From positions 30,001-62,000 of the forward strand of contig CBDCNV010000002.1 of the NCBI GenBank assembly GCA_965219535.1: 32,000 nucleotides of DNA. Direction: 5' to 3'. The first letter of the stretch is position 1. Each line of letters begins with the position of its first letter. Of the stretch, positions 2,776 to 32,000 are shown one piece after another. Below the pieces are notes generated by a model. The model had not been told where the DNA came from, ran no database searches, and saw only the letters and a program-made list of their open reading frames with translations. Both the position numbers and the translations under genes were made by a program. This DNA is from Opitutales bacterium (GTDB lineage: Bacteria; Verrucomicrobiota; Verrucomicrobiia; Opitutales; PNEW01).

Positions 2776-3077
2776 TGAATCCTTGACAAACATAACCACC
2801 AACAGTTGAACTGGGGTCAGGTTTTCGGAAGTCATGACCACGAAAACAGGTCCACTAGAAAAGTTAGTCTGGGACACCTGTAAAGGACTCAGACAATGAA
2901 AGGCAAAAGATATACAACCGAAGAGAAGATACGGATGCTGCAGCAGGCAGACAAAGGGAAAACGATCCTGGAAGTATGCCGTGAGAACAACATAAGCGAA
3001 CAGACCTTCCACCGCTGGAAACGTGAGTTTGGGATGATTGATGTCAACTAGGCCAAGCGGATGAAGGAACTCAAGAA

Positions 3078-3395
3078 TGATTGGACCCCGTTTTTCGTAC
3101 CAATTATTAAGTGAGAGAGCTACCGGGTGTTAATGGTTTTAGGATTGATGTATAGGATAGATCTTGGCGAAGTGAGGGCGTAGCCCGAGCGTGGCCAAGA
3201 TCTGAAATGAATCAGACAAACTCTTGGGGCTTTTAAAGCCTAAACGACTGTGGGGATGTTCATAGTTATAGGTCTGACTCCATTGTTCGATTACCACTTG
3301 TGCTTCAGCTACGCTGAGCAACACTTCACGGTTCAACATGAGCGCTTCGCTATGTCGTCACTACGTTCCTCGGTACATCGCGTAAGCGGTTGTGA
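3078..3395 (-). mobile_element. Nested fragment (end plus 3' part of orfB) of the 'type 2' IS, replacing about 230 bp of IS copy A
   Basis: It aligns with 17251..17545. ORF 3139..3339 reads LNREVLLSVAEAQVVIEQW..YN.EHPHSRLGFKSP, matching the C-terminus of ORF 17280..18131. Confidence 0.8.
3339..3375 (-). repeat. Mini-insertion E3 (37 nt) inside the transposase codons for D-E-C-L-N-R-E
   Basis: The coding strand reads cgcgatg[taccgaggaacgtagtgacgacatagcgaagcgctca]tgttgaaccgtgaag. The uninterrupted homolog at about 17508..17532 reads cgcgatgAGtgtttgaaccgtgaag. Confidence 0.7.
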
Positions 3396-3829
3396 AACGA
3401 CTCGATGAAACTGAAGGCCGCAGTAAGAGGTGCTTATCACAGCAATACGCGAGGTGGGGCTATCTCGAAGATCACGAAGCTGTTGAAGGACGAAGGCTGG
3501 CAGGTGGGTAAACGGCTCGTGCAACGTATACGATGCGAACCGGGCTTGGCGATCACCCACGCAAGCTAAGACATCGGCGCAGGAGTGTTTTCACCGGGCT
3601 GCCGACCAAGGCCGAACAACCCGGCCAGGTTTGGACCTGGGATTTTATCCACGATAAGACGGTCCGCGGTGGGAGTCTCAAAATGCTGACCGTCCTCGAC
3701 GAGTACACCCGCGAATGCCTGGTGATCCATGTCGATCGCCATATCCGTGCGTAAACGGTATGCGGTATTATGCAAAAACTGCTCGATCGTCATGGGCTGC
3801 AAAATATATTCGTAGCGACAACGGTTGCG

Positions 3830-3862
3830 TTCCGAGGAGCGAAGCGACGACATGCGAAGCCA
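3830..3862 (+). repeat. Mini-insertion E1 (33 nt) just after the SDNG codons of the transposase
   Basis: aacggttgcg[ttccgaggagcgaagcgacgacatgcgaagcca]tttattgaaaag. The sister copy at about 7095..7125 has aacggttccgAGtttattgaaaag. Confidence 0.8.
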
Positions 3863-3941
3863 TTTATTGAAAAGGAATTGCGAACTTGGCTGACTGCGAT
3901 GAAAATCAAAACCCTCTATATCGAACCAGGAAGCCCTTGGC

Positions 3942-3985
3942 TACCGAGCGAAGCGACACCTCAACGAGCGATAGCAAGAATAACA
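3942..3985 (+). repeat. Mini-insertion E2 (44 nt) in the P-W-Q-N-G codons just before the catalytic IESF
   Basis: cccttggc[taccgagcgaagcgacacctcaacgagcgatagcaagaataaca]aacgaatccatcgaatcg. The sister copy at about 7187..7213 has cccttggcAGaacggatacatcgaatcg. Confidence 0.85.
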
Positions 3986-4345
3986 AACGAATCCATCGAA
4001 TCGTTCCATGCCCGTTTTCGCGAGGAGTGTTTAAACCGTGAACAGCTATGGACTTTGACCGAAGCCCGCGTGGTGATCGAAGATTGGCGCTGGCTTTACA
4101 ATAATGTCCGCCCCCCACTGCAGCCTCGGCAATGTCACCCCACGGTGCTTCGCTGAAGACCTCAATACCAAAGGTTCGGGCTCCATTCGGGCTACACCCT
4201 CATTGCGCCCAGACCTTGACTTGCTCTACCAACTTAACTTCAACATTAACCTCTCCAGACTAACTCTCATAGTGGTCTAGTTTGTGTAACCCGACCACCT
4301 CAAAAATCGATATATACAGAGTAATATCGTTATTTGACAGTTAGA

Positions 4346-6237: not shown

Positions 6238-7213
6238 TGTGGTTGAGACCACGAAAACAGGTCCACTAGAAAAGTTAGTCTGGGACACCTGGAAAGGACT
6301 CAGACAATGAAAGGCAAAAGATATACAACCGAAGAGAAGATACGGATGCTGCGGCAGGCAGACAAAGGGAAAACGATCCTGGAAGTATGCCAGGAGAACA
6401 ACATAAGCGAACAGACCTTCCACCGCTGGAAACGTGAGTTTGGGATGATTGATGTCAACCAGGCCAAGCGGATGAAGGAACTCTTTGAAGGAGAACGCGC
6501 GGTTAAAGCGGATGCTGGCGGACAAGCTGCTGGGGATAGAGATTCTGCAGGAGACGCTCGAAAAAAAACTGTAAGCCCTGGGCACAAGCGGCAAGTGGCA
6601 GAGAGACTTGTGGCCCGGGGCCAGTGTTCGATACGTGGAGCGTGGCGATACTTTCACCTGCACCGCTCCACCTATGCGTATCGGGCGAAGTATCCTGATG
6701 CCTGGCTAACGAAACAGAAGGCGGCAGTAAGGCGGTTATCACGGCAATACGCGAGGTGGGGCTATCCGAAGATCACGAAGCTGTTGAAGGACGAAGGCTG
6801 GCAGGTGGGTAAACGGCTCGTGCAAGGTCTGCGACGTGAACTGGGCCTGGCGATTCCCCCACGCAAGCCAAGACGCCGGCGCAGGGGTGTCTCCACCGGG
6901 CTGCCGACCATGTTTGGACCTGGGACTTTATCCACGATAAGACGGTCCGCGGTGGGAATCTCAAAATGCTGACCGTCCTTGACGAGTACACCCGCGAGTG
7001 CCGGGTGATCCATGTCGATCGCCATATCAATGCGGAGAAGGTGCGCGGGGTTATGCAAAAACTGCTCGACCGTCATGGGCAGCCAAAATATATTCGCAGC
7101 GATAACGGTTCCGAGTTTATTGAAAAGGAATTGCGAACTTGGCTAACTGCGATGAAAATCGAAACCCTCTATATCGAACCAGGAAGCCCTTGGCAGAACG
7201 GATACATCGAATC
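6238..7213 (+). mobile_element. 'Type 1' IS3-family element, copy B; 3'-truncated at 7213 and frameshifted
   Basis: 6241..6483 is near-identical to 2838..3073. The true orfA frame (..KENARLKRMLADKLLGIEILQETLEKKL*) is reached only after an indel near 6485. An A8 slippery run lies at 6561..6568. OrfB (..RWGYPKITKLLKDEGW..DEYTRECRVIHVDRHI..YIRSDNGSEFIEKEL..PGSPWQNGYIES) has a deletion of about 19 nt near 6910. Homology to copy A ends abruptly after atcgaatcg. Confidence 0.8.
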
Positions 7214-7309
7214 GTCTATATATAAATATATCAATGACTTAAAATGTTCCTGTATTATTATTGTCAATAAAGCTTGCAAGTAAACCTGATTGAGGCATTA
7301 GTTTGCTTG

Positions 7310-8560
7310 ATGGAGGCAACTAAAGGAAAACGCAATAAGTCGAGTCCCTTTAATAGCTGGGAGCACCCTAAAAAAAGTTCTATCACAATCAGGGAAGTTA
7401 TCAATCGAACCGCTGGTGATGATTACGGATTTTCCTACCAGGTTTTGATTCCCGCGAAGTTCGCGGGCAAGCGAATGAGAAGACAGTTCAAGGATAAAGA
7501 GGTCGCTTTTGCCTGGGCAAAAGAACAACACGAACAATTGCTCCAACACGGGCAGCATCATTATAACCTGACCGGTTACCAATCCAAGGACGCTTTCCAT
7601 GCATTCGAAATACTGGAAGGTTTCGACATTACCCTCTCGCAGGCAGCGGAGTTTGCCAAGCTGCATTTGAATCCCCCTGCCGGTGATATCTCAGTGCTGG
7701 AGTTAACGGCAACATTGATTGAGGAAAAAGAAAACCGGAATCTGCGCTCGCGCTCGATAAATGATATCCGCTCCCGGCTGGGAATCTTCTCAAGAAGCTT
7801 TGGGAGCCGAGTGGTCAAGGAGATTTCTCAAACGGAAATAGAGGAGTGGCTCAATAACTTTACCGATCTCTCTGTGAGAAGCATTATAAACTACCGCTTA
7901 TGCTTAAGCAGCTTTTTTAACTATGCGGTGAACAAGGGATTTCGGGTCGATAACCCCGTGCAGAAAATTCCAATCCCAAAAATAGACTGGAAGCCCCCTG
8001 TCATTTTAAAAGTCACTCAAGCAGAAGATTTGGTTTTGCATGCGGCAAAGACAGATGAAGATATGGGGCTGCTCCCATTGGTGGCACTAGGGCTGTTCGC
8101 AGGGTTAAGGAGCACTGAGATTTACCGGCTTGACTGGTCGGCCATCGACCTGGAGCGCAAGTTACTGACGGTTGGCCCACAGATAGCTAAAAAGCGCCAG
8201 TTAAGAGTCATGGATCTTATGGACAATTGTGTGGCATGGTTGCAGCTATGTCATAATAAGAAGGGTAAAGTAACGCCCGCAAACTCATATATAAACTTTA
8301 CTAAGTTAACAAAACAAGCGGGCTTTCCCCATTGGAGGGAAAACTACAGCAATGCGATGCGCCACAGTTTTGGCAGCTACTATTATGCCTTGACCAGTGA
8401 TTCAAGCAAGACCGCAGCCATGCTCGGCCATAGATCGAGCGACCAGATGCTTTTTGATCATTACCGGAGTCTTGCTAGCAGAACAGAGGGGGGGAAATAT
8501 TTCTCAATCCTCCCGGCAAATGCAAAGCAATCGGTTGTCGCATTTAACCCATTAGATTGA
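7310..8560 (+). CDS. int: Tyrosine site-specific recombinase / phage-type integrase
   Basis: Catalytic-domain motifs are present: ..GLRSTEIYRLDWSAIDL.. (R), ..AMRHSFGSYYY.. (H-x-x-R region) and ..LGHRSSDQMLFDHYRSL (H and Y). The ATG at 7310 (MEATKGK..) is preferred over the upstream TTG at 7274. Confidence 0.85.
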   Translation: MEATKGKRNKSSPFNSWEHPKKSSITIREVINRTAGDDYGFSYQVLIPAKFAGKRMRRQFKDKEVAFAWAKEQHEQLLQHGQHHYNLTGYQSKDAFHAFEILEGFDITLSQAAEFAKLHLNPPAGDISVLELTATLIEEKENRNLRSRSINDIRSRLGIFSRSFGSRVVKEISQTEIEEWLNNFTDLSVRSIINYRLCLSSFFNYAVNKGFRVDNPVQKIPIPKIDWKPPVILKVTQAEDLVLHAAKTDEDMGLLPLVALGLFAGLRSTEIYRLDWSAIDLERKLLTVGPQIAKKRQLRVMDLMDNCVAWLQLCHNKKGKVTPANSYINFTKLTKQAGFPHWRENYSNAMRHSFGSYYYALTSDSSKTAAMLGHRSSDQMLFDHYRSLASRTEGGKYFSILPANAKQSVVAFNPLD

Positions 8561-17239: not shown

Positions 17240-17555
17240 TCCAGGGGCTGTGATCGGATCCCGTTATTCGTACCAATTTTTAAGTGAGAGAGTTACCGGG
17301 TGTTAATGGTTTTAGGATTGATGTATATGAGAGATCTTGGCGCAGTGAGGGCGTAGCCCGAACGCGGCCAAGATCGGAAAGGAATCTGACAAACTCTTGT
17401 GGGCTTTTAAAGCCTAAACGACTGTGGGGATGTTCATTATTGTAATTATGACGCCATTGTTCGATTACCACTTGGGCTTCAGCTACGCTGAGCAACACTT
17501 CACGGTTCAAACACTCATCGCGTAATCGGTTGTAAAACGACTCGATGAAACCATT

Positions 17556-17599
17556 TGTTATTCTCGCTATGGCTCGTTGAGGTGTCGCTTCGCTCGGTA
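17556..17599 (-). repeat. Mini-insertion E2 (44 nt) in the type 2 transposase, at the same codons as 3942..3985
   Basis: The coding strand reads ccctggc[taccgagcgaagcgacacctcaacgagccatagcgagaataaca]aatggtttcatcgag. It matches E2 of copy A at 42 of 44 positions. Confidence 0.85.
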
Positions 17600-17680
17600 G
17601 CCAGGGACTGGCTGGATCGATATAGATCGCCTTGAGATGTTTTTGTCTGACAACCACTGCTGCACCTGATGAGCAATGAA

Positions 17681-17713
17681 TGGCTTCGCATGTCGTCGCT
17701 TCGCACCTCGGAA
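17681..17713 (-). repeat. Mini-insertion E1 (33 nt) in the type 2 transposase, at the same codons as 3830..3862
   Basis: The coding strand reads aacggcagtg[ttccgaggtgcgaagcgacgacatgcgaagcca]ttcattgctcat. It matches E1 of copy A at 32 of 33 positions. Confidence 0.85.
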
Positions 17714-18271
17714 CACTGCCGTTGTCACTACGGATATAGCTAGGAGCTCCCTCCTCTTCGATGGCCTCGCTAAGCACAGAGAGGACATCGGCTGAGGTGA
17801 GTTGACGAGCTACCCGGATATCGAGGCATTTACGCGTATATTCATCGATCAGAGTCATCATCTTTAATGGACCGCCATTGTCTGTGCGATCATGGACAAA
17901 GTCCCAGGACCAAACGTGATTGCGTCCTTTTGCTTTAGTGGGGAGCCCTGTTGAGACCCCTTGACGGGGTCTGCGCTTTTTCGTTCGCTTTACCTGTAAG
18001 CCCTCTGCACGTCGTACTGCCTGCACAAACTTCCTGCTTGTTGTCCAGCCCTCCTTTACCAGTAAGGCACGGACGCGCCGATAACCGTAGCGCGGATGTT
18101 CCCAGGACAAAGTTACAATCCGCTCGGCCAATCGTTGGGCTTTCTTGCTGGTCTGCTTGGGCCGATAGCTGAACGTTGACCAACTGAGGCTGAGATAGGA
18201 ACATGCCCTCTAAAACGAGCACAGCCCTCTCTCAGCCGCATCTTTTACTGCTCGCTTCTTCTGCTTTGGCC

Positions 18272-18538
18272 TCACCATTTTTTTGACAGTGTTTCCTCCA
18301 TCACCTGATTCTTCAGCATTTGATCAGCAAGCAGCTTCTTCAGTTCGGTGTTTTCTTTTTCCAGCTCTTTATAGCGCTTCGCATCGGCCAGCTCCAAGTT
18401 GCCATACTTTTTACCCCAGCGATAGAAGGTCTGTTCACTTAGGTTGTTTCCTCGGCAGATCTCTTGTACCGTTTTACCGGTATCGGCTTGCCGTAGTATT
18501 ATTATAATCTGTTCTGTTGTGTATCTTTTTCTTTTCAT
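18272..18538 (-). CDS. IS3-family transposase OrfA (HTH plus leucine zipper)
   Basis: MKRKRYTTEQIIIILRQADTGKTVQEICRGNNLSEQTFYRWGKKYGNLELADAKRYKELEKENTELKKLLADQ.. is the typical IS407-group OrfA pattern. Confidence 0.85.
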   Translation of the reverse strand: MKRKRYTTEQIIIILRQADTGKTVQEICRGNNLSEQTFYRWGKKYGNLELADAKRYKELEKENTELKKLLADQMLKNQVMEETLSKKW

Positions 18539-18600
18539 TGAGGTGATCTGTTTATTCCGATAACCTCTCTCTGTAAATGATACGGTTTTGGGGGGTCACA

Positions 18601-18944
18601 TCAACCGGGCAATCAAAGCAGTCGATGTGCCCGCTCTGTTGCAGCAGATGATTTCCAGCATGTGTCGCCCCTGTTTATTCGTTTCAGACAACAGACCGGA
18701 GTTCATAGGGGAAGCTATCTAGAAGGTGCTGCTTGAACACCAAATGATCACAATTTATATCGATCCTGGCTGCCCTTGGCTGAATGGATACGCTGAAAGC
18801 TTCAACCGCCCGTTTCGAGCGCAGGGTCTAGACCGCGAGCTGCTTTATACCTTGAGTGAATCTCACGTTGTGGTCGCAGACTGGCGGGAAGAATATCATA
18901 ACATTCGTCCTCATCGCTCCTTGGGCTTGCTAACTGCGGTTTAA
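18601..18944 (+). pseudogene. Fragment of a third IS3-family OrfB ('type 3'), into which the type 2 IS appears inserted
   Basis: ..VSDNRPEFIGEAI*..ITIYIDPGCPWLNGYAESFNRPFRAQGLDRELLYTLSESHVVVADWREEYHNIRPHRSLG. It starts directly at the IS end (18598) and carries no mini-insertions. Confidence 0.7.
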
Positions 18945-18949
18945 TTTGC

Positions 18950-19440
18950 CAAGAAAAATACAGCACAAAGGCTCCAAGCGTACAGTCTTGTTTTTCATAA
19001 AACTGATAGGCGAGGATATTAATATTCTGCGTTTCAATTTTGATCAAGCGACAACCTTTAGTGCGTAACCAGTCTACGGTATGCTTCCAACAGTCTAGTG
19101 CCTATACCTAGGCCGCGATGATCGGGATGAACCCGGATATCCCAAAGCGCTGCGGCATCATCAAAATCTTCGAACATATAAAATCCCGGCGTCTTTCATG
19201 CAACAGCGGCACCGCCGACTCTTTACGCACCTTTAAAAGCGGAGAATATCCCCAAATTAGACATATCCCACTGCTTATGCCAGCACGTGGGGTTTTCGCC
19301 TTCAATTTTATCATAGTCTTTAAGGTATGGTGGCAAAACCTCTTCCTCTTGAAGTAATATCCCGCTTTGACTTTTTTATTTATTTTGATGTGGTAACGAG
19401 ACTTAACGAAAAAAAGTAATCGGTACTTCGCCATAGTCAG
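18950..19440 (-). pseudogene. GNAT acetyltransferase (streptothricin-acetyltransferase-like), frameshifted, with a stop and 3'-truncated
   Basis: Spliced across frames it reads ..EEEVLPPYLKDYDKIEGENPTCWHKQWDMSNLGIFSAFKGAEESVGGAAVA*KTPGFYMFEDFDDAAALWDIRVHPDHRGLGIGTRLLEA / VDWLRTKGCRLIKIETQNINILAYQFYEKQDCTLGAF. Confidence 0.5.
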
Positions 19441-22158: not shown

Positions 22159-24078
22159 GAAACACCCCCACGCATGTGGGGAATACTATCTCTCACCGCC
22201 GACATGTTCTTGGCGTCCAGAAACACCCCCACGCATGTGGGGAATACCATCTGATGCACACGTCGTCACCAAAGGAGATAGAAACACCCCCACGCATGTG
22301 GGGAATACAGCGATTCGTTAAAATCTATGAGGACCGCGATAGAAACACCCCCACGCATGTGGGGAATACTTCAACCCAAGCAAGGCGCTCCCCCTTTAGT
22401 CGGAAACACCCCCACGCATGTGGGGAATACCTCGCAAGTGTTTCAATAGCCCCGTCCTCTCTAGAAACACCCCCACGCATGTGGGGAATACGTCTTTCGG
22501 GTAAGCCGTACCATTGCTCAATGAGAAACACCCCCACGCATGTGGGGAATACTTATTTATGCTTTAAAACCCCGAGCCAAAGCAAGAAACACCCCCACGC
22601 ATGTGGGGAATACGCCATGGGGATAGCTACACGGCTCTATATGGTGGAAACACCCCCACGCATGTGGGGAATACGAGGTTACTTCACCTCTTTCGCCACC
22701 ACCCTGAGAAACACCCCCACGCATGTGGGGAATACTTGTTTCTTCCTTGGGATCTTTGGGGCGCATCGGAAACACCCCCACGCATGTGGGGAATACGATG
22801 TGAGTCAGGGCCTCCCGCCTCCAGTTATAGAAACACCCCCACGCATGTGGGGAATACTCGGTAACTGCACGTCCTCACACCGGTGAGAGGGAAACACCCC
22901 CACGCATGTGGGGAATACAACATCTATCCCACGAGACCGCGAGCAACTACAGAAACACCCCCACGCATGTGGGGAATACCAGCGCATTGAGATTGGCGCG
23001 CATGGTCGCTCGGAAACACCCCCACGCATGTGGGGAATACCTCAATATGCCTTCCATTGCTGCCTGTGCGTTGGAAACACCCCCACGCATGTGGGGAATA
23101 CTCTTAAAGAAAGATGTTATTGACAGAGCTTCAAGAAACACCCCCACGCATGTGGGGAATACGTCACCCCTCCACCGCTTGGAAAAATAACCCTGGAAAC
23201 ACCCCCACGCATGTGGGGAATACACTGACAGATCTCTTATTTTAGTGGGCTGGATAGAAACACCCCCACGCATGTGGGGAATACTCCGCCATTTCCCTCA
23301 ACATTTAATTCTGCCGAGAAACACCCCCACGCATGTGGGGAATACCGGTCCACCCCCTAAGATCCATCTCGAATACCGGAAACACCCCCACGCATGTGGG
23401 GAATACCCATTTGCTGAGGTTATAGTTTACAAAGATATGAGAAACACCCCCACGCATGTGGGGAATACTCTTCAAATCTATGTAAAGTAGGAGTTCGAAA
23501 AGAAACACCCCCACGCATGTGGGGAATACTCTGTTCAGTAGCTCCATAGTCACTGGCAATTAGAAACACCCCCACGCATGTGGGGAATACCGGTTACTGT
23601 CGCCAATATATTAATAGTAAATGGAAACACCCCCACGCATGTGGGGAATACTCTTAATAGCCCGCTTAGCGACAGAATCAGATAGAAACACCCCCACGCA
23701 TGTGGGGAATACGAAAACGCCGCTCAAAGCACACAATCGAGGCAAGAAACACCCCCACGCATGTGGGGAATACTATTAATTGCGCGTCTTGCAAGTGAAA
23801 ATGATAGAAACACCCCCACGCATGTGGGGAATACCTAGCGACAGAAGCGGACTTGTCTAGTGTTTTAGAAACACCCCCACGCATGTGGGGAATACTCGAC
23901 CGTAGTTCCAACAGGGGAAACAGAGGCAGAAACACCCCCACGCATGTGGGGAATACTTCGAGTTCGGCTTCCTGCAGGTTACTTCTTTGGAAACACCCCC
24001 ACGCATGTGGGGAATACCGAGATTTCTCCTCTGATATACACCTGCACCGGGAAACACCCCCACGCATGTGGGGAATAC
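22159..24078 (-). CRISPR. Type I-E CRISPR array: 32 identical 28-nt repeats and 31 spacers (30 of 33 nt, one of 34 nt)
   Basis: The repeat in transcribed (minus) sense is GTATTCCCCACATGCGTGGGGGTGTTTC. It has a CCCCAC/GTGGGG stem and an ATGC loop. The period is 61 nt, with repeat starts at 22159, 22220, ... 24051 and one 62-nt step at 23379->23441. The orientation is set by the cas operon and leader on the 24.1-kb side. Confidence 0.97.
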
Positions 24079-24387: not shown

Positions 24388-24669
24388 TTATAACCTTTTT
24401 TCTATTACTAGCTGTAAGCCGGACAATTCAGTCAATGCCCTGCCAGTATCACCAATACCGTGTACTACGTATCCAGGTGCAATTGATGTAGAACGAAACA
24501 CCATCAAGCCGCTTTCACGCGGGCAATGTTTGTAAAGATAGTCCACAACTTTTTTCGCTACAGAATCTTTTACACTCGAAACAAAAACATTGGGGCGAGG
24601 CTCTACAAACCAGAGTTTCATGCGACCACGCACGACCGGCGGTAAATCATTTGCGATAACCACGAGCAT
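24388..24669 (-). CDS. cas2: Cas2 (type I-E)
   Basis: MLVVIANDLPPVVRGRMKLWFVEPRPNVFVSSV.. parallels E. coli YgbF [33 protein letters not shown]... Confidence 0.92.
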   Translation of the reverse strand: MLVVIANDLPPVVRGRMKLWFVEPRPNVFVSSVKDSVAKKVVDYLYKHCPRESGLMVFRSTSIAPGYVVHGIGDTGRALTELSGLQLVIEKRL

Positions 24670-25555
24670 GTTTTTTCCCTAGTAATGCTTCAATATCCAC
24701 AACAATTTTTCCCAAAAGATCTGATTTAATGACACGCTGACGAAACGCAGAGGCCACTATATGCTTGTTGTATTGGCCCGCCATCTCGAGGGTTAGAGAA
24801 AATGCCAGATCAATGCATAACTCCTCTTTGTATAAATCGGCCAAGTCGTATACAAATGGTAACGGGCTGCCAGAATGAATAAAACCAATATGTGGAGAGT
24901 ATCCCAGGCTATGGATAACAGAAGCGACAATGCCGTAGAGTGCAGCATTTGAGGCGGTCAGAATCCGATTGGTCATGTCGCTTAACTCAAATTTGCCAGG
25001 AATATAATTTCTGCCTTTCCATCCAACTTGGTACTGCTGTGCTTTGACCTCATAAAGTAAGCGAACCCGAGAACCCTCCATACCCATCATTTCTTTCAGG
25101 CTTTTACCGGTAAGTTTAGCCACCGAGAACCTGTGAGCGAACATACGCCTTGCGACCTCGACCGATTTTTCAGGATTTGCAGATAGTTCGACCTGATGAC
25201 GCAGGTTGTGGGTATCAGCTGTAGGAGTCTGTCCCACTGCGTAAAATACCAGGGAATCTTCCCCAACCCAGATAATACTGCAGTTCGCAGCCGCTGCAAT
25301 TTTGACCGCTTCGTGGGTTATGGTTGTGCCTGGGCCTAATAACAAGCAGTTAATTGTGGCTATGGGCAATCTGACTATGTTCATTTCGCAGTCGATCCAT
25401 TTCAGACTGCTATCGTCTATCTCGAGTCGGCCTCGCTCGAGATAAATGAAAGGATATTTATCCTTTACCCGTGGCAGGGTATCACGCGTTATTCTTACCA
25501 GCAGCCGATTATCGGTTGCTTTGCTATTTCGGTATGTGGTCTGATCCCCTGCCAT
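24647..25555 (-). CDS. cas1: Cas1 (type I-E)
   Basis: ..LLLGPGTTITHEAVKIAAAANCSIIWVGE..GMEGSRVR..YSPHIGFIHSGSPLPFVYDLADLYK.. parallels E. coli YgbT (..MLEPGTRVSHAAV..GIEGSRVR..GFVHTGKPLSFVYDIADIIK). The start is taken at ATG 25555; the ORF track gives TTG 25567. Confidence 0.93.
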   Translation of the reverse strand: MAGDQTTYRNSKATDNRLLVRITRDTLPRVKDKYPFIYLERGRLEIDDSSLKWIDCEMNIVRLPIATINCLLLGPGTTITHEAVKIAAAANCSIIWVGEDSLVFYAVGQTPTADTHNLRHQVELSANPEKSVEVARRMFAHRFSVAKLTGKSLKEMMGMEGSRVRLLYEVKAQQYQVGWKGRNYIPGKFELSDMTNRILTASNAALYGIVASVIHSLGYSPHIGFIHSGSPLPFVYDLADLYKEELCIDLAFSLTLEMAGQYNKHIVASAFRQRVIKSDLLGKIVVDIEALLGKKHARGYRK

Positions 25556-26276
25556 CCACAGTAACAATCGTTACCCTGCGATCACGATATAGTTTATTAG
25601 TTCCGAATTGAATCGGTACGTCGTTCAAGGTAATAACCTCATCACCTTCATGCTCCCCGTTGAGGACGCGAAAGTCCTCCATCAATTTTTTCCCAATGGC
25701 AATTTGTTCTGCCTGTTTTAAAATCTCTTCTTCGGATTCATCTTGTCCCCGATAAATAAAGTCGGTCGGTACACAATTCTTGCGCCCAAGGTAGAGATCC
25801 CATGTCGGATATTTCAGCGCATTACTCACAGTTTGAATTATATCATCAGGCACCTGTAAAGCGACTGCGAACGCCATGTCCTGCAAGTAGAAACGATAGG
25901 TCATTTTTGTTCCTCCCCCTACTGCTTTTCCTCCTCCCATGGTTTTCGGGATCATAAGTTTTTCCCAATCATCTTGGGTATTATAACCACTTCCTACCAT
26001 GTGAAAGTCCTGCAATATAGGTTCTCTGGGTTGTTTTTGTGGCTCTTTTTCATTAAATTGTTTAGTGCGAACATAAGCCACCACGGTCATATTCAATTTA
26101 GCAAACTTTTCCAACAATTCTCGTTGTTCCCCCCCTGCACCCATAGCACTGCATACCAACCCCAAAATTCCTGATTTGGTAGGGAAATTAAGGGTATCTC
26201 TTCGATCAAATTTAGAGTCATGCCCCCAGGATTGCAGAGGAGCTTCTAACCATAATAATATATACGGGGTTTTCAT
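25524..26276 (-). CDS. cas5: Cas5e (CasD)
   Basis: MKTPYILLWLEAPLQSWGHDSKFDRRDTLNFPTKSGILGLVCSAMG parallels E. coli CasD MRSYLILRLAGPMQAWGQPTFEGTRPTGRFPTRSGLLGLLGACLG. An ATGA overlap couples it to the cas7 stop. Confidence 0.92.
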   Translation of the reverse strand: MKTPYILLWLEAPLQSWGHDSKFDRRDTLNFPTKSGILGLVCSAMGAGGEQRELLEKFAKLNMTVVAYVRTKQFNEKEPQKQPREPILQDFHMVGSGYNTQDDWEKLMIPKTMGGGKAVGGGTKMTYRFYLQDMAFAVALQVPDDIIQTVSNALKYPTWDLYLGRKNCVPTDFIYRGQDESEEEILKQAEQIAIGKKLMEDFRVLNGEHEGDEVITLNDVPIQFGTNKLYRDRRVTIVTVDGRGSDHIPK

Positions 26277-27325
26277 GGCTCCACCGTTGCGTGACCTCTA
26301 AGAGCGGCTACAAGATCATCGATATTAAAGTCGTCATCCGCAGAAAGAGTATATTCCCCTACCTTTCCAAAAAGGGACCCGGCCATTTTCTCCTTACTTG
26401 AGAGTTCTTGATTCAGTTGATCAATACTAGGTTCAAGATAGCCAAACCCATTCTGTTTGACCGGTTTATCGAATGCTAATTGCAAGCGCTGTCCATTGCG
26501 CACCAGTATTTTTGCGTAATCCCAGAAGGACGCACCAGACTGTGTAGATTGACGCGCTGATGGAATAGCAGAAAACAAAGCTTTGGTAAATGCCTCAACT
26601 GCTTCAGGTAAGCTTTCACCAGAGAGAGTCTGCCACAGTTGATCGAGATCTAGGCTGATGTAACGATAGTAAGTAGCGGAGTTAAATTCTAGTGAACCCA
26701 TATGCGCTGATCCGGATTCCTCCTTTCCCTTTAAATCATCCAGCGCTGTGAAGAACTCAACCTCGTTACTTACTTTATGAGTTGATATTGCATGAGCAAA
26801 TGAGGCTGCAGCTTCAATATTCAATTCAGCTGCCTTAGCTACCATACGACCAAAGAGTGCGATATCAAGACCGTCCATTGCTGGATTCAGTGTTTTTTTC
26901 GCGCTCTTATTGACATCCTTATCTTTGATTATGTCACAATCAAACTTTTTCTCACATGCCAATTTAGCGAATGCATTGGCTTCTGATTCAGTAAAGAAAT
27001 GCAATGTGTCCTCAGTCAAAAATTCTGCAATTTTTGCTCCACATTTCTTTGCCTGTTCATCGTCTGCACCTTGAGTCTGACATGCTTTCTCTACTAACTC
27101 AGCCACCTTCTTGGTGCGTATGGCTAACTTAATGCCAAACTCTTTTAACGCCATACGAACTGGGCGTTTCCAGGCTTGTGAACTCACTCGAGCGCGCGTC
27201 ACACCTCCAACAACAGCGGTTTTAGGTGCACCAACATCATCCCGGTTGAGACAGGTCACTGGGAAAGACTGTAGGATGTGAAATTCGATACGAGTATTTT
27301 TTAACGGATTGTTTTGTTGAACCAT
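26273..27325 (-). CDS. cas7: Cas7e (CasC/Cse4)
   Basis: The motifs CLNRDD, RVSSQ, DIALFGRM, AHAISTH, FTALDDL and GSAHMG fall in the same order as in E. coli CasC. Confidence 0.93.
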   Translation of the reverse strand: MVQQNNPLKNTRIEFHILQSFPVTCLNRDDVGAPKTAVVGGVTRARVSSQAWKRPVRMALKEFGIKLAIRTKKVAELVEKACQTQGADDEQAKKCGAKIAEFLTEDTLHFFTESEANAFAKLACEKKFDCDIIKDKDVNKSAKKTLNPAMDGLDIALFGRMVAKAAELNIEAAASFAHAISTHKVSNEVEFFTALDDLKGKEESGSAHMGSLEFNSATYYRYISLDLDQLWQTLSGESLPEAVEAFTKALFSAIPSARQSTQSGASFWDYAKILVRNGQRLQLAFDKPVKQNGFGYLEPSIDQLNQELSSKEKMAGSLFGKVGEYTLSADDDFNIDDLVAALRGHATVEP

Positions 27326-27350
27326 GAATATGCCCTTAATCTAATTTTAT

Positions 27351-27968
27351 TTATAGGTTGGAATGAGGATCGATTTGTAAAAGACCGAAGCCAAAAGCAC
27401 GGCCACGGCCAATACCCTGGCGAAAGCTCTTCTTAAATTTCGCACGGTCATCAACAGTTAAATGGCCTTGTAACGTAGCTGAACCGAGAGTAACCCGATT
27501 ACCTTTTTTCTCGAACTGATTCACGCCAAGATTGTTCACCTGTAATGTTGGAATATATACCTTAAATCCCCAACTCTCCGGTGCTTTATTGGCAAACCAT
27601 TGCATAATTTCCTCTCGGCCACGAATTGCAAATATTTTACGGCTTTCACTTTCACGCCTAGTTGGGTTAATGGTGATCTCGAAACGATAATGTTCATAGT
27701 CTAAAAATTTCTCAGGGATTTCCTTGATCTCTACCTCACCATGTTTTGGCTTACGTGGTGCACGCTGAGACAGAATTAAAATATGCCTACTATGAAAATC
27801 TCCACCTTTGTCGACATAGAGAATCCCACTGGATAAACTGATTTTTTTTTGATCATCGTTTCGCACATCGTCGAACATGCCATACACGACACGGTGTAAT
27901 GAATAAGTATCGGAAATTTTTAAGGCCACCATGTCGAGCCGACTTAGGCGTAATACACTGGCAATCAT
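27351..27968 (-). CDS. cas6e: Cas6e (CasE/Cse3) crRNA endoribonuclease, located between cse2 and cas7
   Basis: ..YRFEITINPTRR.. and the C-terminal glycine-rich loop ..FRQGIGRGRAFGFGLLQI parallel E. coli CasE ..YFRLRANPIKT.. and ..VQQGIGPAKSMGCGLLSL. Confidence 0.88.
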   Translation of the reverse strand: MIASVLRLSRLDMVALKISDTYSLHRVVYGMFDDVRNDDQKKISLSSGILYVDKGGDFHSRHILILSQRAPRKPKHGEVEIKEIPEKFLDYEHYRFEITINPTRRESESRKIFAIRGREEIMQWFANKAPESWGFKVYIPTLQVNNLGVNQFEKKGNRVTLGSATLQGHLTVDDRAKFKKSFRQGIGRGRAFGFGLLQIDPHSNL

Positions 27969-28507
27969 GCTGCACCCTTAGTTTCGCTAGGTTCCTTATT
28001 GGTTATAGCGTAACGATAAAAGTCTTGCGCCCACTGAGGCTTGACTGCTTGTTCCTGCCAATGGAATTTTAAAAGTTGAGCGAGCAGTGTAGCATAGTCC
28101 AACGGCACTTTTCCTTTACTGGCGATAAGGCTGAGTATGGGACGCAAAATGCGACATGCTTCTTCTACTGAATCACAGGCCAATAGACGACGCAGTTTAG
28201 CTTTGGCCTGATCGCTTTGGTTCCCCTCGTCATAACAGCTGGCAATACCCCAACCAATACCCCTACTGCCGTTATGCTCAATTTTTGCCTTTGCAATTGC
28301 TGCCGCAACGGTCGCATAAGGTAATCTTTGCCATGGTTTTTCCAGATCAACGTGAAAGCCAGCCAGGATTTCCCAGCTTTGATATTCCGTATCAGGATTG
28401 TCAGCGCGACGAAGTGCCGCTGCGATACCTTTATCATTGTTACTTCGTTCAATGATATAATCCACAAAAGTAGTGGATTTATTCCGGTTTTTATTTTCAA
28501 TGCTCAT
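27965..28507 (-). CDS. cse2: Cse2 (CasB/Cas11) small subunit
   Basis: A 180-aa helical protein between cse1 and the next Cascade gene, with ..GIAAALRRADNP.. as in Cse2 families. It has a strong SD (ggggggag) and an ATGA overlap with cas6e. Confidence 0.8.
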   Translation of the reverse strand: MSIENKNRNKSTTFVDYIIERSNNDKGIAAALRRADNPDTEYQSWEILAGFHVDLEKPWQRLPYATVAAAIAKAKIEHNGSRGIGWGIASCYDEGNQSDQAKAKLRRLLACDSVEEACRILRPILSLIASKGKVPLDYATLLAQLLKFHWQEQAVKPQWAQDFYRYAITNKEPSETKGAA

Positions 28508-28518
28508 ACTGCTCCCCC

Positions 28519-30009
28519 CTATGTCTCACTAAGGTATTTTGCCGGTAAATGCGGCCGATTTTTTGCCCAAGCATCAAGCTGTCTGGCTGTCTCTTTAGGA
28601 CAATAAACGTCATAAGCTCTATAAGCAATATCAGAAAAAGTTCTACGCAGAACGCGTGTCTTGTCCTGGTCTTCGCAGTTGCCGACGAGTTGCTGAAATT
28701 CTCTTTCACAAAGCTGCCAAAATAGACTGCTGCACTGTTTAGCTTGTTTCATTCCATCCATTTGCTGAGTCTTGAAGAAGCCCATGGTTGCTCCATAGGT
28801 TCTTTTTGCAATCTTTTCGAGCTCTTGCATCTCTGTTGTTAACCGCTCAAACCAAAGATCACCAACCCACTCCTTATGAAGGGTTATTGAGGACTCTACG
28901 TAATCATCAGTCCCTGAAACATATTGTTCACCAGCATTACTGCTGACACGTAACCCACCCGACCAGATACAAAAAATAGGCATTTCTTCTTTGGCTCGCG
29001 TGAGACCATACTTAATTTGATGACAGTCAAAACCTCCTTTTATGGTGGTGCTGCCCATAAAACTGAGCAATGCTGTCAACTCGCGCCATGGTCGCTTTTG
29101 TGGATCGACCCAAAGCGCTTTAGGGGCCTTTTCTGCGAAACTGACAGCGATACTAGGATCATAAACATTATCTTTATGACTAGCATGAGCGATACCCTCT
29201 GAATAGTGCAATCCTTTCTGTTCTAACAGACAAAATCGGCCAAGAGGTATTAGCCGCCCCATGTAGCTATTTTTTAATGATTCAGCTATAGGATCTGCCT
29301 CACCGGTCGGCATGCATTCCCACGGAGCAGTACCTAGCCCTTTCGTATAAATTTCCAATGCCTTAATTTGCTCTGCAGTTAATAGATTTAACCAAAGACT
29401 ATTTACTAGATTGTCTGCGAGCAGATAACTGTGCATGTACCCCATGTATCCAACCGAACTTCCAGATTTTCCCGAAGAAGCCTTACCTTTATCATTTGTT
29501 TTCCCTTTGTATCCCAATGTTAATACAATTTTATTATCTACTTTCTTTCCACCCAGACTGAAACCCATTAATACAAGAAGGAGCATCGCACGCTCTGCAT
29601 CAGACAATTCCTTCTCGATATGAGATTGAATGAGAACAGTTGTGTTACCTGTGGCAACTTCTGGCAAAACTACTCCGAATGGCAGTAGTTTTGCATCGAC
29701 AATTGCAGGTACTTGTAAAAACGGCTTGTCTCCGTAGAGCCAAAACTGATCGTACCATTTCTGCAAATAAGCTGAACACTTTTCAGCCATTCCCTTCGAT
29801 CCCAATTCTTTCCAAGCGGCATCGTTTTTTGGTGTACAAGCAGCTTGTGCAATGGCAAGCAGCAGTTTGGTAATAGCAATCTTTTCAACTGGATTACCAC
29901 CGAGTGCTCGAAAAGAAAACTCGGTAAATATCTGTTTAAGACTGACCCTGCCCACATCCGTCACTGGAACCCAGGGTTCATCAATCAGGTTATACCGCCT
30001 GTTTATTAT
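28519..30009 (-). CDS. cse1: Cse1 (CasA/Cas8e) large subunit; the true start probably lies upstream of the GTG at 29964 given in the ORF track
   Basis: ..DQFWLYGDKPFLQVP.. parallels E. coli ..DMFYLNHAEHPFMQTK... The in-frame upstream codons (29965..30009) encode I-I-N-R-R-Y-N-L-I-D-E-P-W-V-P, which is the conserved Cse1 N-terminal NLLxxxWIPV motif. See the finding on the start codon. Confidence 0.85.
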   Translation of the reverse strand: MINRRYNLIDEPWVPVTDVGRVSLKQIFTEFSFRALGGNPVEKIAITKLLLAIAQAACTPKNDAAWKELGSKGMAEKCSAYLQKWYDQFWLYGDKPFLQVPAIVDAKLLPFGVVLPEVATGNTTVLIQSHIEKELSDAERAMLLLVLMGFSLGGKKVDNKIVLTLGYKGKTNDKGKASSGKSGSSVGYMGYMHSYLLADNLVNSLWLNLLTAEQIKALEIYTKGLGTAPWECMPTGEADPIAESLKNSYMGRLIPLGRFCLLEQKGLHYSEGIAHASHKDNVYDPSIAVSFAEKAPKALWVDPQKRPWRELTALLSFMGSTTIKGGFDCHQIKYGLTRAKEEMPIFCIWSGGLRVSSNAGEQYVSGTDDYVESSITLHKEWVGDLWFERLTTEMQELEKIAKRTYGATMGFFKTQQMDGMKQAKQCSSLFWQLCEREFQQLVGNCEDQDKTRVLRRTFSDIAYRAYDVYCPKETARQLDAWAKNRPHLPAKYLSET

Positions 30010-32000
30010 CGCTTTGTCTCCTTTTTATTACCTGATATCCAATATTGCTGTTGTATTTAATATCGAACTTGCCTGAAACAGGTTCGCCTCCTGGAAGTTT
30101 CAGTTCGCCGCTTTCCTCTACTAAAGCTACTCGCACAAGACTTTCGTCGTAATCCCTGTTTCCGAGATATAGATAATCACTTAACCAATGGATAGATTTT
30201 CTTGGAACGACGGCAGGTGCATGGTGTTGCGCCACATTGACAATCTGTTGCATGATGCACACTGCCAATTCTCTCCACCGGTATTTGTTTCTGGCTCTAA
30301 TATAGGTCGGTAGAATTAGTGTAATGCCCCCCTCTAGTAAAGTCAATTCCACACCTCCTTCAGGGTGAAATTGTATGTTTCTTAACAGTAATACTTGCAC
30401 GGATTCCTGTTTGCTGTAACGCGTTGTTGCCTTGTTTTCTGGTAAAGTAGTACCTGCCTTCGATATCCCTATCTGAGCCATTGATTTCATCGCCTTGATA
30501 CCAACACGATGTTTCCTTCGATTACCGTTGATTAGCTCATGCTTCCAAGTTGCCATCTGATCCTGCTCATCCCGTTCCTGATAAGTGTCTTCAATTAATC
30601 CACGGATGTCTCGAGGGATCGAAACATCTCGTTTTTCATGCCAGACTTTAAGGCTTCTGCACAATACATAAGGATTATAAACAAATGCGGTGTTTCCAAA
30701 TGCTTTTTCTGGGTTTTCTATTGCTGCACCCAGTTGCGGTGCGATAATCCAAGCATCACGCTTGGCCTCTGGGGGCCGCGATCTCTCAGAATGCCGCCAT
30801 AATCGACCCAAGCGCTGTAACAACATATCAGTTGGGCAAAAACGTGTAATTATGAAGTCAGCGTCAATATCCAGTGATTGCTCGAGGACTTGGGTTCCTA
30901 CCAGAATCCGTCCCTGGTCGTTCCGTTCTTTCACGCAGCCTTTTCCAAAAAGTTCAACCCAATACTGTTCAATTCTGTCCCGATCCTTTTTTGTAAAACG
31001 AGAATGTAAGAGACCACATCTGATATTCATTTCATGTGTTCGGGCTGCGAGCCGAGAATAGATATCCTGGGCTTCGGACACTGAGTTTTCTACCCACAGG
31101 ACTTGCTGTCCTTCCCCTGCACGTTGCAACGCTTCATCAATGGCTTCTCTTTGCTTAACCCACGACAAATGCACCGTGTCGTTTGTCGGAACCATAAACT
31201 CGATTTCTTGCAGATCACAATCCAAGGGAAATACAGAAACTAGAGGGTAACCATGTTTCTTTGGAGCCACACCCAGTAATTCTCTGCGTTTATCAGTGGA
31301 GAGAGTTGCACTCAATATAATGACTGTGCATTGGAGTTGACGGAGTGCAGAGACAAGTACTTTCAATAAGGTTCCAGTGTAGACATCATAGCTGTGGACT
31401 TCGTCAAGAATCACAACTTTTCCGGCCAACCCGAACGTTCTGACAAAGCCATGCTTCACGTTCATAACAGCCATCAGTGCCTGATCAATGGTTCCGACCC
31501 CGAAAGGTGCAAGGATTTTGCGTTTGGTTGACTCGAACCAGGACCCTCCAGGTTGGCCCTCTACACCCATTTGAGTTTGTTTGAGCCAGGCATTCCCATG
31601 CAGCAGAAAAGCATCCCGGTGCTGACAGCTATCAGTTAAGATTTGTCCCAGAAAATTAACAACGCGGCCAAGAATCTTCTCTGAGGTAAGCTGCGTAGGT
31701 AGGGCGAAATAGATACCTGTAGCTCGGTCCTTCACCATTATCCGGTAGGCGACATAAAGAGCGGCTTCGGTTTTACCAATCCCCATCGGTGCCTCCATAA
31801 CATAAACACCCTGGGTATTACAGCACTGGATTAATGTCTGCTGAATTGGCCTAGGGGCAAAACCGAAAATATCTTCAAAGCTCTGATCTTTCTTTAAATC
31901 GGGTCTCATAAAGCCAGCTGAATCCAACACTTTACTGATCTGCGATTGCCATTCTTGACTTGGAACGTCAAAAAAAGATCCCGACCCTATCCAGTCCGAA
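29990..32000 (-). CDS. cas3: Cas3 helicase-nuclease (partial; the N-terminal HD domain lies beyond the window end)
   Basis: Helicase motifs are present: APMGIGKTEAAL (I), VILDEVHSYD (II, DEVH) and SATL (III). The frame stays open upstream of the track's GTG to position 32000 and reads SDWIGSGS.., resembling the ADWxGS motif at the end of Cas3 HD domains. Confidence 0.93.
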   Translation of the reverse strand, partial: SDWIGSGSFFDVPSQEWQSQISKVLDSAGFMRPDLKKDQSFEDIFGFAPRPIQQTLIQCCNTQGVYVMEAPMGIGKTEAALYVAYRIMVKDRATGIYFALPTQLTSEKILGRVVNFLGQILTDSCQHRDAFLLHGNAWLKQTQMGVEGQPGGSWFESTKRKILAPFGVGTIDQALMAVMNVKHGFVRTFGLAGKVVILDEVHSYDVYTGTLLKVLVSALRQLQCTVIILSATLSTDKRRELLGVAPKKHGYPLVSVFPLDCDLQEIEFMVPTNDTVHLSWVKQREAIDEALQRAGEGQQVLWVENSVSEAQDIYSRLAARTHEMNIRCGLLHSRFTKKDRDRIEQYWVELFGKGCVKERNDQGRILVGTQVLEQSLDIDADFIITRFCPTDMLLQRLGRLWRHSERSRPPEAKRDAWIIAPQLGAAIENPEKAFGNTAFVYNPYVLCRSLKVWHEKRDVSIPRDIRGLIEDTYQERDEQDQMATWKHELINGNRRKHRVGIKAMKSMAQIGISKAGTTLPENKATTRYSKQESVQVLLLRNIQFHPEGGVELTLLEGGITLILPTYIRARNKYRWRELAVCIMQQIVNVAQHHAPAVVPRKSIHWLSDYLYLGNRDYDESLVRVALVEESGELKLPGGEPVSGKFDIKYNSNIGYQVIKRRQSDNKQAV

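Follow-up and report, generated by a model that had tools for sequence, protein, structure and literature searches.

Ultra-short hairpin-bearing inserts that replace two bases at conserved sites of IS3-family elements in Opitutales are probably repeats mobilised in trans

Mobile DNA shorter than about 50 nt is barely documented; the repetitive extragenic palindromes (REPs) and the small dispersed repeats (SDRs) of cyanobacteria are the main bacterial cases, and the mechanism of their movement is unresolved. The locus described here lies in a window of 32,000 nucleotides from an Opitutales bacterium (GenBank assembly GCA_965219535.1, contig CBDCNV010000002.1, positions 30,001 to 62,000; all coordinates below count from the first base of this window). 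It raises the question of what two segments of 33 and 44 nt are that interrupt the transposase gene (orfB) of an IS3-family insertion sequence (IS), and how they came to be there. The answer that we prefer, with a probability of roughly 0.55, is that they are ultra-short (25-45 nt), non-coding, hairpin-bearing repeats of Opitutales which are mobilised in trans and spread by site-faithful templated copying together with hitch-hiking. The two segments and the two IS copies on which the comparison rests are as follows.

2835..4297, plus strand: IS copy A, IS3-family type 1 (IS407-like), decayed and rearranged, with inserts 1 and 2, as aligned to copy B.
3830..3862, plus strand: insert 1, 33 nt, TTCCGAGGAGCGAAGCGACGACATGCGAAGCCA, replacing the AG of a GAG codon in the motif S-D-N-G-S-E-F (site 1).
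3942..3985, plus strand: insert 2, 44 nt, TACCGAGCGAAGCGACACCTCAACGAGCGATAGCAAGAATAACA, replacing the AG of a CAG codon in the motif P-W-Q-N-G (site 2).
About 6246..7216, plus strand: IS copy B, type 1, 3'-truncated, with sites F, 1 and 2 empty.

A reading of the window from sequence only (the sequence-only reading) had proposed that each segment stands in place of an AG dinucleotide and that copy B preserves the empty sites. The coordinates and sequences of both inserts are confirmed, and so are the empty sites: copy B reads ggttccG-AG-ttt at site 1 (7113-7116, AG = 7114-7115), ttggC-AG-aac at site 2 (7194-7197, AG = 7195-7196) and CT at site F (6569-6570). Outside a block of nested IS in copy A, the alignment of the two copies differs at two points, which are the two inserts. 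Insert 1 adds 31 nt net and shifts the reading frame; insert 2 adds 42 nt net and keeps it. Copy A has imperfect terminal repeats (2844-2872 and 4255-4283), and in a full-length type-1 relative (L010, from the Opitutales metagenome-assembled genome (MAG) CBDANS01) orfA and orfB are intact in translation after removal of the insert. The 5' module said to be shared by the two inserts (CCGAG-N0-3-CGWAG) has 5 matches in the window where 0.36 would be expected, and none of 100 shuffles reached 5. As a side observation on the host elements, orfA carries one T too many in every type-1 IS copy, CTCTTTGAAGGAG against the expected CTCTTGAAGGAG (copy B 6480-6500; L010 at about 250-290), so that orfA and orfB are joined in a single frame and the usual -1 frameshift is not needed, and the leucine-zipper part of OrfA is out of frame after the extra T. 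A sequence in an unrelated open reading frame (ORF, 1320-1652), cctcaacgagctacagcaaaacgaatc at 1528-1560, is similar, perhaps by chance, to the 3' half of insert 2 together with its right flank in copy A (cctcaacgagcgatagcaagaataacaaacgaatc).

The window holds further inserts that the sequence-only reading had not mentioned: both segments recur in a third IS, and a third, inverted one lies inside copy A.

17251..18600, minus strand: IS copy C, IS3-family type 2, with inserts 1 and 2 filled and sites 0 and 3 empty.
17681..17713, minus strand: insert 1 in copy C, 32 of 33 nt identical to that of copy A, at the homologous codon.
17556..17599, minus strand: insert 2 in copy C, 42 of 44 nt identical to that of copy A, at the homologous codon.
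17634..17636, minus strand: an extra 2-nt 'tc' between inserts 1 and 2 of copy C, recognised by comparing the translation with intact type 2.
3073..3411, minus strand: 3' fragment of a type-2 IS resembling copy C, nested inverted in copy A (its direct-repeat families D3, D7 and D15 match 17251-17551).
3339..3375, minus strand: insert 3, 37 nt, TACCGAGGAACGTAGTGACGACATAGCGAAGCGCTCA, replacing the AG of a GAG codon in the motif R-D-E-C-L-N of the nested type-2 fragment.

The orfB of copy C is 60% (nt) and 47% (aa) identical to that of type 1, and its site 3 is empty (G17516-AG-T17513). In copy A the central orfA/orfB region is gone and the inverted fragment 3073-3411 stands in its place; the right junction of the fragment falls at a 5-nt microhomology (GAAAC), and its start lies 4 nt downstream of type-2 site 2. 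Copies A, B and C fit the IS3 family, IS407-like, in having a DDE transposase, an overlap at a slippery A-run (A7/A8 at the orfA/orfB overlap), imperfect terminal repeats and an orfA with an HTH_Tnp_1 match upstream of orfB. The host gene had been named correctly: copy C gives Pfam matches to HTH_21, rve, rve_3 and rve_2, and the rve match is broken at residue 139, which is the first insert.

Copy C also bears on the simplest objection, raised by the sequence-only reading itself, that the segments are native coding sequence of the IS and copy B a deletion derivative, since its 283-aa ORF is open through both segments. That frame spans the inserts because the 2-nt indel near 17635 compensates the +31 shift, and the residues between inserts 1 and 2 are an out-of-frame reading. 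The same arrangement of inserts and 2-nt indel is found in a protein from another assembly (P0029). When the copy C ORF was searched against proteins and the matches were aligned, intact relatives of 306 aa and distant homologues read SDNGSEF...PWQNG...RDECLN without the segments, and other assemblies contain relatives that carry the segments in varied combinations; an IS type about 63% identical to copy C has insert 2 in one protein (P0035) and is empty in its sister (P0047). With the rve match interrupted as well, we give the native-coding explanation a negligible chance; that the segments are true insertions in IS3-family (IS407-like) orfB genes is supported.

The segments are not confined to this locus. 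A pattern covering inserts 1-3 was scanned against 185,579 species genomes and returned at least 80 loci; about 70 of the loci listed are Opitutales (Verrucomicrobiota) MAGs, chiefly CBDANS01 and the chromosome OY829953.1, the remaining genuine matches among the loci listed are CBDDCJ01, OFTM265, OFTM360 and one Opitutaceae bin, and nine matches in high-GC genomes are due to chance. Counts, clusters and diversity figures below refer to the fetched loci (685 kb), in which site occupancy was called by alignment of IS copies against intact references. Insert 1 is found at the same site in at least 70 distinct IS copies of other genomes, and insert 3 at its site in at least 15 further copies. A metagenome scan with a narrow head pattern returned 8 loci, 5 of them by chance, and a protein search showed that the window's own IS protein recurs on a 2.3-Mb contig and in an ENA metagenome assembly. 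We rejected an assembly artefact because the inserts are present in independently made assemblies (several MAG projects; ENA and NCBI metagenome assemblies). The sequence-only reading had allowed that the segments might occur nowhere else and go back to a trivial local duplication. The recurrence in many genomes speaks otherwise, and an origin from the IS by local duplication or template slippage was rejected, since Smith-Waterman comparison of the three inserts with copy B on both strands scored no better than shuffled sequence. Scans of viral contigs gave just two matches, both chance hits in high-GC DNA, and a phage origin was set aside.

Alignment of the fetched copies showed five occupied sites in these ISs and a sixth target outside them.

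Site F, slippery A-run of orfA/orfB: 25 nt (TACCGAGCATAAGCGACATCTACCA), element strand opposite to the coding strand, replaces CT on the coding strand (AG on the element strand).
Site 0, LID-E-YTR: 44 nt, coding strand, replaces AA.
Site 1, SDNGS-E-F: 33 nt, coding strand, replaces AG.
Site 2, PW-Q-NG: 44 nt, coding strand, replaces AG or AA.
Site 3, RD-E-CLN: 37 nt, coding strand, replaces AG.
Sixth target, not an IS, a duplicated tRNA-Gln 3' fragment (ttcG-AA-tcc): 41-nt variant.

Each of the five IS sites is always occupied by its own variant, and one type-2 copy (L068) carries inserts 0, 1, 2 and 3 together. On the element strand the junctions follow one rule in all cases and in either orientation: a G or C is followed by the unit, T[AT]CCGAG...CA, in place of two bases (AG or AA), and then by A or T. 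The four bases upstream of the insertion vary (AGTG, TCCG, GATG, TGGC, TTAC, TTCG). Units in heptamer repeats have 5 nt of a heptamer next to one end and a complete heptamer next to the other, which implies that two bases were replaced there too. The replacement of AG thus stood, and its restriction to AG did not: AA is replaced as well, and what is constant is two bases after G or C. Likewise, the proposed position beside catalytic residues describes sites 1 and 2 and fails for the five IS sites taken together, which include the orfA/orfB slippery site, and for the targets outside ISs. No target duplication is seen at any of the five IS sites or in the tRNA fragment, and no terminal inverted repeats at any site examined, as had been said of the first two inserts.

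Two side observations concern single sites. One locus (L084, 2540-2600, encoding protein P0003 of a cluster of 42 sequences) has a 21-nt short form at site 1, ggcAGTG-TTCCGAGGAGCGAAGCG-AGTG-AGttc, in which the head alone is present, AG is kept, AGTG is duplicated and the frame is maintained; its 313-aa OrfB is intact apart from a 7-residue insertion, VPRSEAS. Copying that was broken off or later partly reversed may have produced this form. In the window, a fragment of a third IS3-family element beside copy C (18597-18953, plus strand) reads P-W-L-N-G (tggCTGaat) at the equivalent of site 2, and CTG in place of CAG or CAA could be a point mutation or a footprint.

The units are built alike. The head T[AT]CCGAG leads into a short hairpin and then a GAC(GAC)A box; behind these comes a variable body, in many cases with a second mini-hairpin, and the 3' end is CA. 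Of this plan the IS inserts retain the head and the GAC box, the hairpin being reduced to a mini-hairpin of the GCGAAGC type, and in most cases the second mini-hairpin as well; in insert 2 the loop of the second hairpin is the sole variable part. These mini-hairpins have stems of 2 bp only and score near 0 in an energy model; d(GCGAAGC) is an exceptionally stable DNA mini-hairpin. Units outside ISs in the fetched Opitutales loci read TACCGAG, hairpin, (C)GACATC(TTCCA), with covarying stems of 4-7 bp (GGGC/GCCC, GCGT/ACGC, GTCCTG/CAGGAC, GTCCCG/CGGGAC) and, on the GGGC/GCCC stems, loops of GAA, GTA, GTT or ACA. They are found singly in heptamer repeats, as inverted pairs in palindromes resembling miniature inverted-repeat transposable elements (MITEs), adjacent to each other, and in a tandem array of 55-nt period, and a 44-mer of the insert-2 type stands in non-IS contexts of three other Opitutales MAGs. 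The statement that the segments form no hairpin is misleading, given the mini-hairpins in the inserts and the covarying stems in the family. An Rfam search of 2800-4300 gave no match at E<=1, and a full-text literature search for the head sequences gave no match.

Related sequences were noted in two other settings. Four loci (L007, L044, L067, L080) contain MITE-like palindromes of about 125-150 nt whose ends read TGTCATTGCGAGGAGCAACGCGACG...CTCCTTCGCAATGACA, some with an inner inverted pair of TACCGAGC...GCTCGGTA units. Three unrelated metagenome contigs of GC 0.50-0.60 (L090, minus strand, at about 2611; L092 at about 291; L095 at about 1275) carry a duplicated tRNA-Met 5' fragment ending in ggttaG and then TTCCGAGGAGCG-loop-GCGACGACA, with an intact tRNA-Met 100-150 nt downstream; the junction is again at G-AG, in the D-loop, which suggests that this type of head may be more widespread and tied to tRNA genes.

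The distribution of the inserts among IS copies indicates spread that was repeated and recent. Column heterozygosity is 0.015 for insert 0, 0.012 for insert 1 and 0.020 for insert 3, against 0.13-0.30 in the 40-nt flanks, where polymorphism runs up to the junctions; the inserts are about ten times less variable. Since insert 0 lay outside the search pattern, its uniformity is not an effect of ascertainment. Clustering of the orfB sequences, cleaned of inserts, at 3% divergence gave 13 type-1 and 26 type-2/3 clusters; inserts are present in 28 of these 39, in lineages up to about 40% apart and in combinations of every kind (1; 01; 12; 23; 3; 0123; 1F; etc.), and three clusters hold filled and empty copies together. 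Filled/empty pairs with near-identical flanks exist in three IS types: copies A and B in type 1, a pair in type 2, and L002 and L083 in type 3 (site 2, flanks 99% identical). A filled and an empty copy (L003 and L053) differ by one single-nucleotide polymorphism (SNP) in 948 nt, which lies 3 nt past the tail of insert 1 and changes ttT to ttC, the state of most filled copies; in L064 two SNPs lie no more than 12 nt from the tail of insert 2. No SNPs were seen at the head-side junction in near-identical filled/empty pairs.

Part of the spread is due to the ISs themselves. Sixteen type-1 copies are about 99.7% identical and all 16 have insert 1. Where insert 1 is the sole insert of a type-1 copy, orfB is otherwise intact in 17 of 21, and insert-bearing copies show a dN/dS of about 0.2; of the copies that carry three or four inserts, most are damaged elsewhere as well. 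Insert-bearing copies have multiplied, which means that defective copies were amplified, presumably in trans; the same genome also holds empty intact relatives (L023, L053). Recombination between diverged ISs likewise takes place at the inserts, as judged from five chimeric ISs that switch between type 1 and type 2 exactly at an insert (L031, L035, L059, L071, L058) and from a deletion in which the insert 1 head is fused to the insert 3 tail (L054, minus strand, at about 4880).

These observations could be taken to mean that each insert arose once by accident and that immobile segments then spread passively, through trans-amplified defective ISs and IS recombination. The fidelity of variant to site, the burst of 16 near-identical copies, the chimeras and the L054 deletion are all what such a history predicts. 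It does not predict the same architecture and two-base replacement at six unrelated sites on both strands, the related units outside ISs in other genomes, or the lack of similarity between the inserts and the IS; and it must bring inserts into lineages 40% diverged while leaving the flanks unconverted, although identities of 4-10 nt are too short for RecA-type recombination. We regard a purely passive origin as rather improbable.

The multiplication of otherwise intact copies under a dN/dS of about 0.2, the strong conservation of the inserts and their length, which is near that of known bypass elements, might instead suggest functional recoding, in which the segment is removed from the mRNA as a mini-intron or skipped by the ribosome (bypass or frameshift) and transposase is still made. 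This is disfavoured because removal cannot restore the lost AG or AA, and the affected E and Q residues are highly conserved. The net lengths of the variants (+31, +42, +35, +42 and +23 nt) fit no single rule: three of the five variants cause a frameshift, a fourth (insert 0) contains an in-frame TGA, and the outcome for orfB is a frameshift, a stop codon or the exchange of one residue for 15 foreign ones. Pairs of take-off and landing codons were not seen when the junctions were read, the variant at site F lies on the opposite strand, no Rfam family matches, and most of the copies that carry three or four inserts have other defects too. Recoding is very improbable.

Direct transposition is a more serious alternative. 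Here a free, probably single-stranded micro-element would integrate afresh by means of a trans-acting REP-associated tyrosine transposase (RAYT)/Y1 or rolling-circle HUH enzyme, the IS sites would be preferred targets, and no filled copy would serve as template. A REP-like hairpin beside a conserved head, the lack of target duplication, the 44-mer of the insert-2 type in several unrelated non-IS contexts, the junction rule shared by unrelated targets including the tRNA fragment, and flanks that usually lack co-conversion are all in its favour. Under direct transposition, however, variants should mix between IS sites, and each site always has its own; a pairing code between variant and target was not found; the tail-adjacent SNPs of near-identical filled/empty pairs point to a homologous donor; and no HUH gene was detected in the fetched loci, though by a weak test. 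On balance we consider it unlikely.

The fidelity of each variant to its site, the lack of pairing between variant and target, and the lack of likeness to the IS together argue for copying from a filled homologous site, which is the core of the reading we prefer. The units have no coding capacity and must therefore be moved in trans. A unit enters after a G or C and swaps out exactly the next two bases (AG or AA) without target duplication. Within ISs it would be copied from a filled IS copy into the empty homologous site, by synthesis primed at the head-side junction that proceeds from head to tail on the donor and is followed by rejoining, and this synthesis would sometimes run a few bases into the tail-side flank of the donor. 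Mobilisation of defective IS copies would then amplify the unit passively. A head side left unconverted and a tail side converted now and then over a very short stretch seem to fit head-primed synthesis rather than ordinary heteroduplex recombination. Candidate enzymes are a nickase or HUH-type protein acting at the hairpin, or a template-switching polymerase or reverse transcriptase.

Several points weigh against this reading. Tail-side co-conversion is seen in very few pairs, and template-directed loss would leave the same pattern as gain, so that the two cannot be formally told apart. The search by tblastn for Y1/RAYT-like genes in the 685 kb gave nothing below E = 0.17, with IS200 TnpA and E. 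coli RAYT queries, a weak test. The longest runs of complementarity or identity between variants and targets are 4-5 nt (p = 0.7-1.0), no better than chance; guide-like pairing with the target flanks was rejected on this ground and does not account for the site fidelity of copying. In addition, inserts 1-3 were partly ascertained through an exact-match search pattern, and the balance of IS against non-IS and of empty against filled copies is that of the fetched loci.

A stronger claim can be put forward only tentatively: that the inserts represent a new class of ultra-small (25-45 nt) DNA parasitising mobile elements, which homes into IS3-family transposases by target-primed head-to-tail copying with two-base replacement, either as a hyperparasite or as a brake on IS expansion exploited by the host in symbiont-like Opitutales. 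We would count the family among the very small mobile repeats, a kind already known, with a substantial chance that its mechanism is a distinct one.

Other features of the window lie apart from the inserts. Directly after the truncated end of copy B there is an ORF of the phage-integrase family (7274-8560, Pfam Phage_integrase), and replication-type ORFs (DnaD/IstB-like matches) after it suggest an integrated element. A CRISPR array at 22159-24078 has 32 repeats (GAAACACCCCCACGCATGTGGGGAATAC) and 31 spacers of 33-34 nt with a period of 61 and is I-E-like; the minus-strand ORFs after it (24388-31930) are probably cas genes. A CRISPR link was considered and dropped, the 31 spacers giving just chance matches of 12-18 nt to ISs and inserts.

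As study material the family offers dozens of filled/empty pairs in hosts of many copies, an exact junction rule, a covarying hairpin, a strict pairing of variant with site and a possible copying polarity. Here one kind of selfish DNA repeatedly breaks, at conserved motifs, the transposase genes of another, which bears on the curbing of ISs in host-associated bacteria; if the units are indeed homing parasites, the knock-out of the transposase turns autonomous ISs into defective ones. In practical terms, annotation shows a broken transposase ORF wherever such an insert lies, and unrelated ISs acquire hotspots at which they can recombine.

The sequence-only reading had also stated that the segments match no known class of bacterial mobile element or repeat. 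MITE identity was rejected, since the units have no terminal inverted repeats or target duplication and their insertion costs two target bases. Very short hairpin repeats that land in coding sequences are known in the mitochondrial double-hairpin elements, GC clusters and byps and in the Rickettsia palindromic elements (RPEs). Those of RPE and byp type are tolerated, the RPEs being in frame and the byps bypassed, whereas here three of five variants shift the frame, a fourth has a stop codon, and the hosts are selfish elements and not host genes; in contrast to the bypass elements (T4 gene 60, byps), no matching take-off and landing codons are present, and the E or Q codon is not restorable. 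The homing of group I introns and inteins is similar in the site-specific occupation of conserved coding motifs, in presence and absence among near-identical alleles, in an insert far more uniform than its host gene and in short co-conversion beside the insert. The present units differ from introns in their length of 25-45 nt, in having no Rfam match and no ribozyme, and in the loss of two target bases; there is no endonuclease gene and the insert is not removed from the product, and unlike inteins the +31, +35 and +23 nt variants are out of frame and insert 0 has an in-frame TGA.

The palindrome-associated transposable elements (PATEs) of the IS200/IS605 type and the rolling-circle elements (IS91, Helitron) make no target duplication, depend on hairpins and show polar, one-ended transfer that can include the tail-side flank; polar transfer would fit the tail-adjacent SNPs described above. 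Those elements, however, exceed 100 nt and insert at a fixed tetranucleotide or between A and T with no deletion of target bases, and a PATE has a subterminal hairpin at either end and goes in 3' of a fixed tetra- or pentanucleotide, whereas here the upstream bases vary and two bases are replaced. Neither an IS200/IS605 nor a rolling-circle transposase was identified in the fetched loci, again by a weak test. To our knowledge, ISs insert into REPs and not the reverse, and replacement of two bases has not been described for REPs. Likeness to REPs and REPINs lies in a short conserved head at the foot of a hairpin with a covarying stem, high copy number, occurrence as single units, inverted pairs and clusters, and movement in trans without coding capacity (REPIN: PMC3116915). 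REPs are extragenic, with a GTAG-type head and a RAYT partner; the Opitutales units lie inside transposase ORFs and a tRNA fragment, have the head T[AT]CCGAG, and matched no RAYT in the 685 kb (the same weak test). The defining features of REPs are thus absent or were not found, and to that extent the claim of no known class holds; it went too far in that REPs and REPINs, and also SDRs, are close analogues. In architecture, REPs and REPINs may be regarded as the closest mechanistic analogue.

The cyanobacterial SDRs described by Elhai et al. are said to be associated with heptamer repeats. SDR4, SDR5 and SDR6 resemble the present family in being tens of nt long, non-coding, dispersed and often tandem, in that their mobility was inferred from filled and empty sites, and in insertion at one exact point within a given short sequence; according to PMC4390886, SDR5 inserts between bases 3 and 4 of the HIP1 octamer. 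They differ in belonging to another phylum with unrelated sequence, in units of 21-27 nt against 25-45 nt here, and in that the Opitutales units replace two target bases and occupy five fixed sites of IS3-family transposases, each with its own variant. By this analogy the Opitutales family and the SDRs would be the same kind of thing, though not the same family, and the SDRs are probably its closest behavioural analogue.

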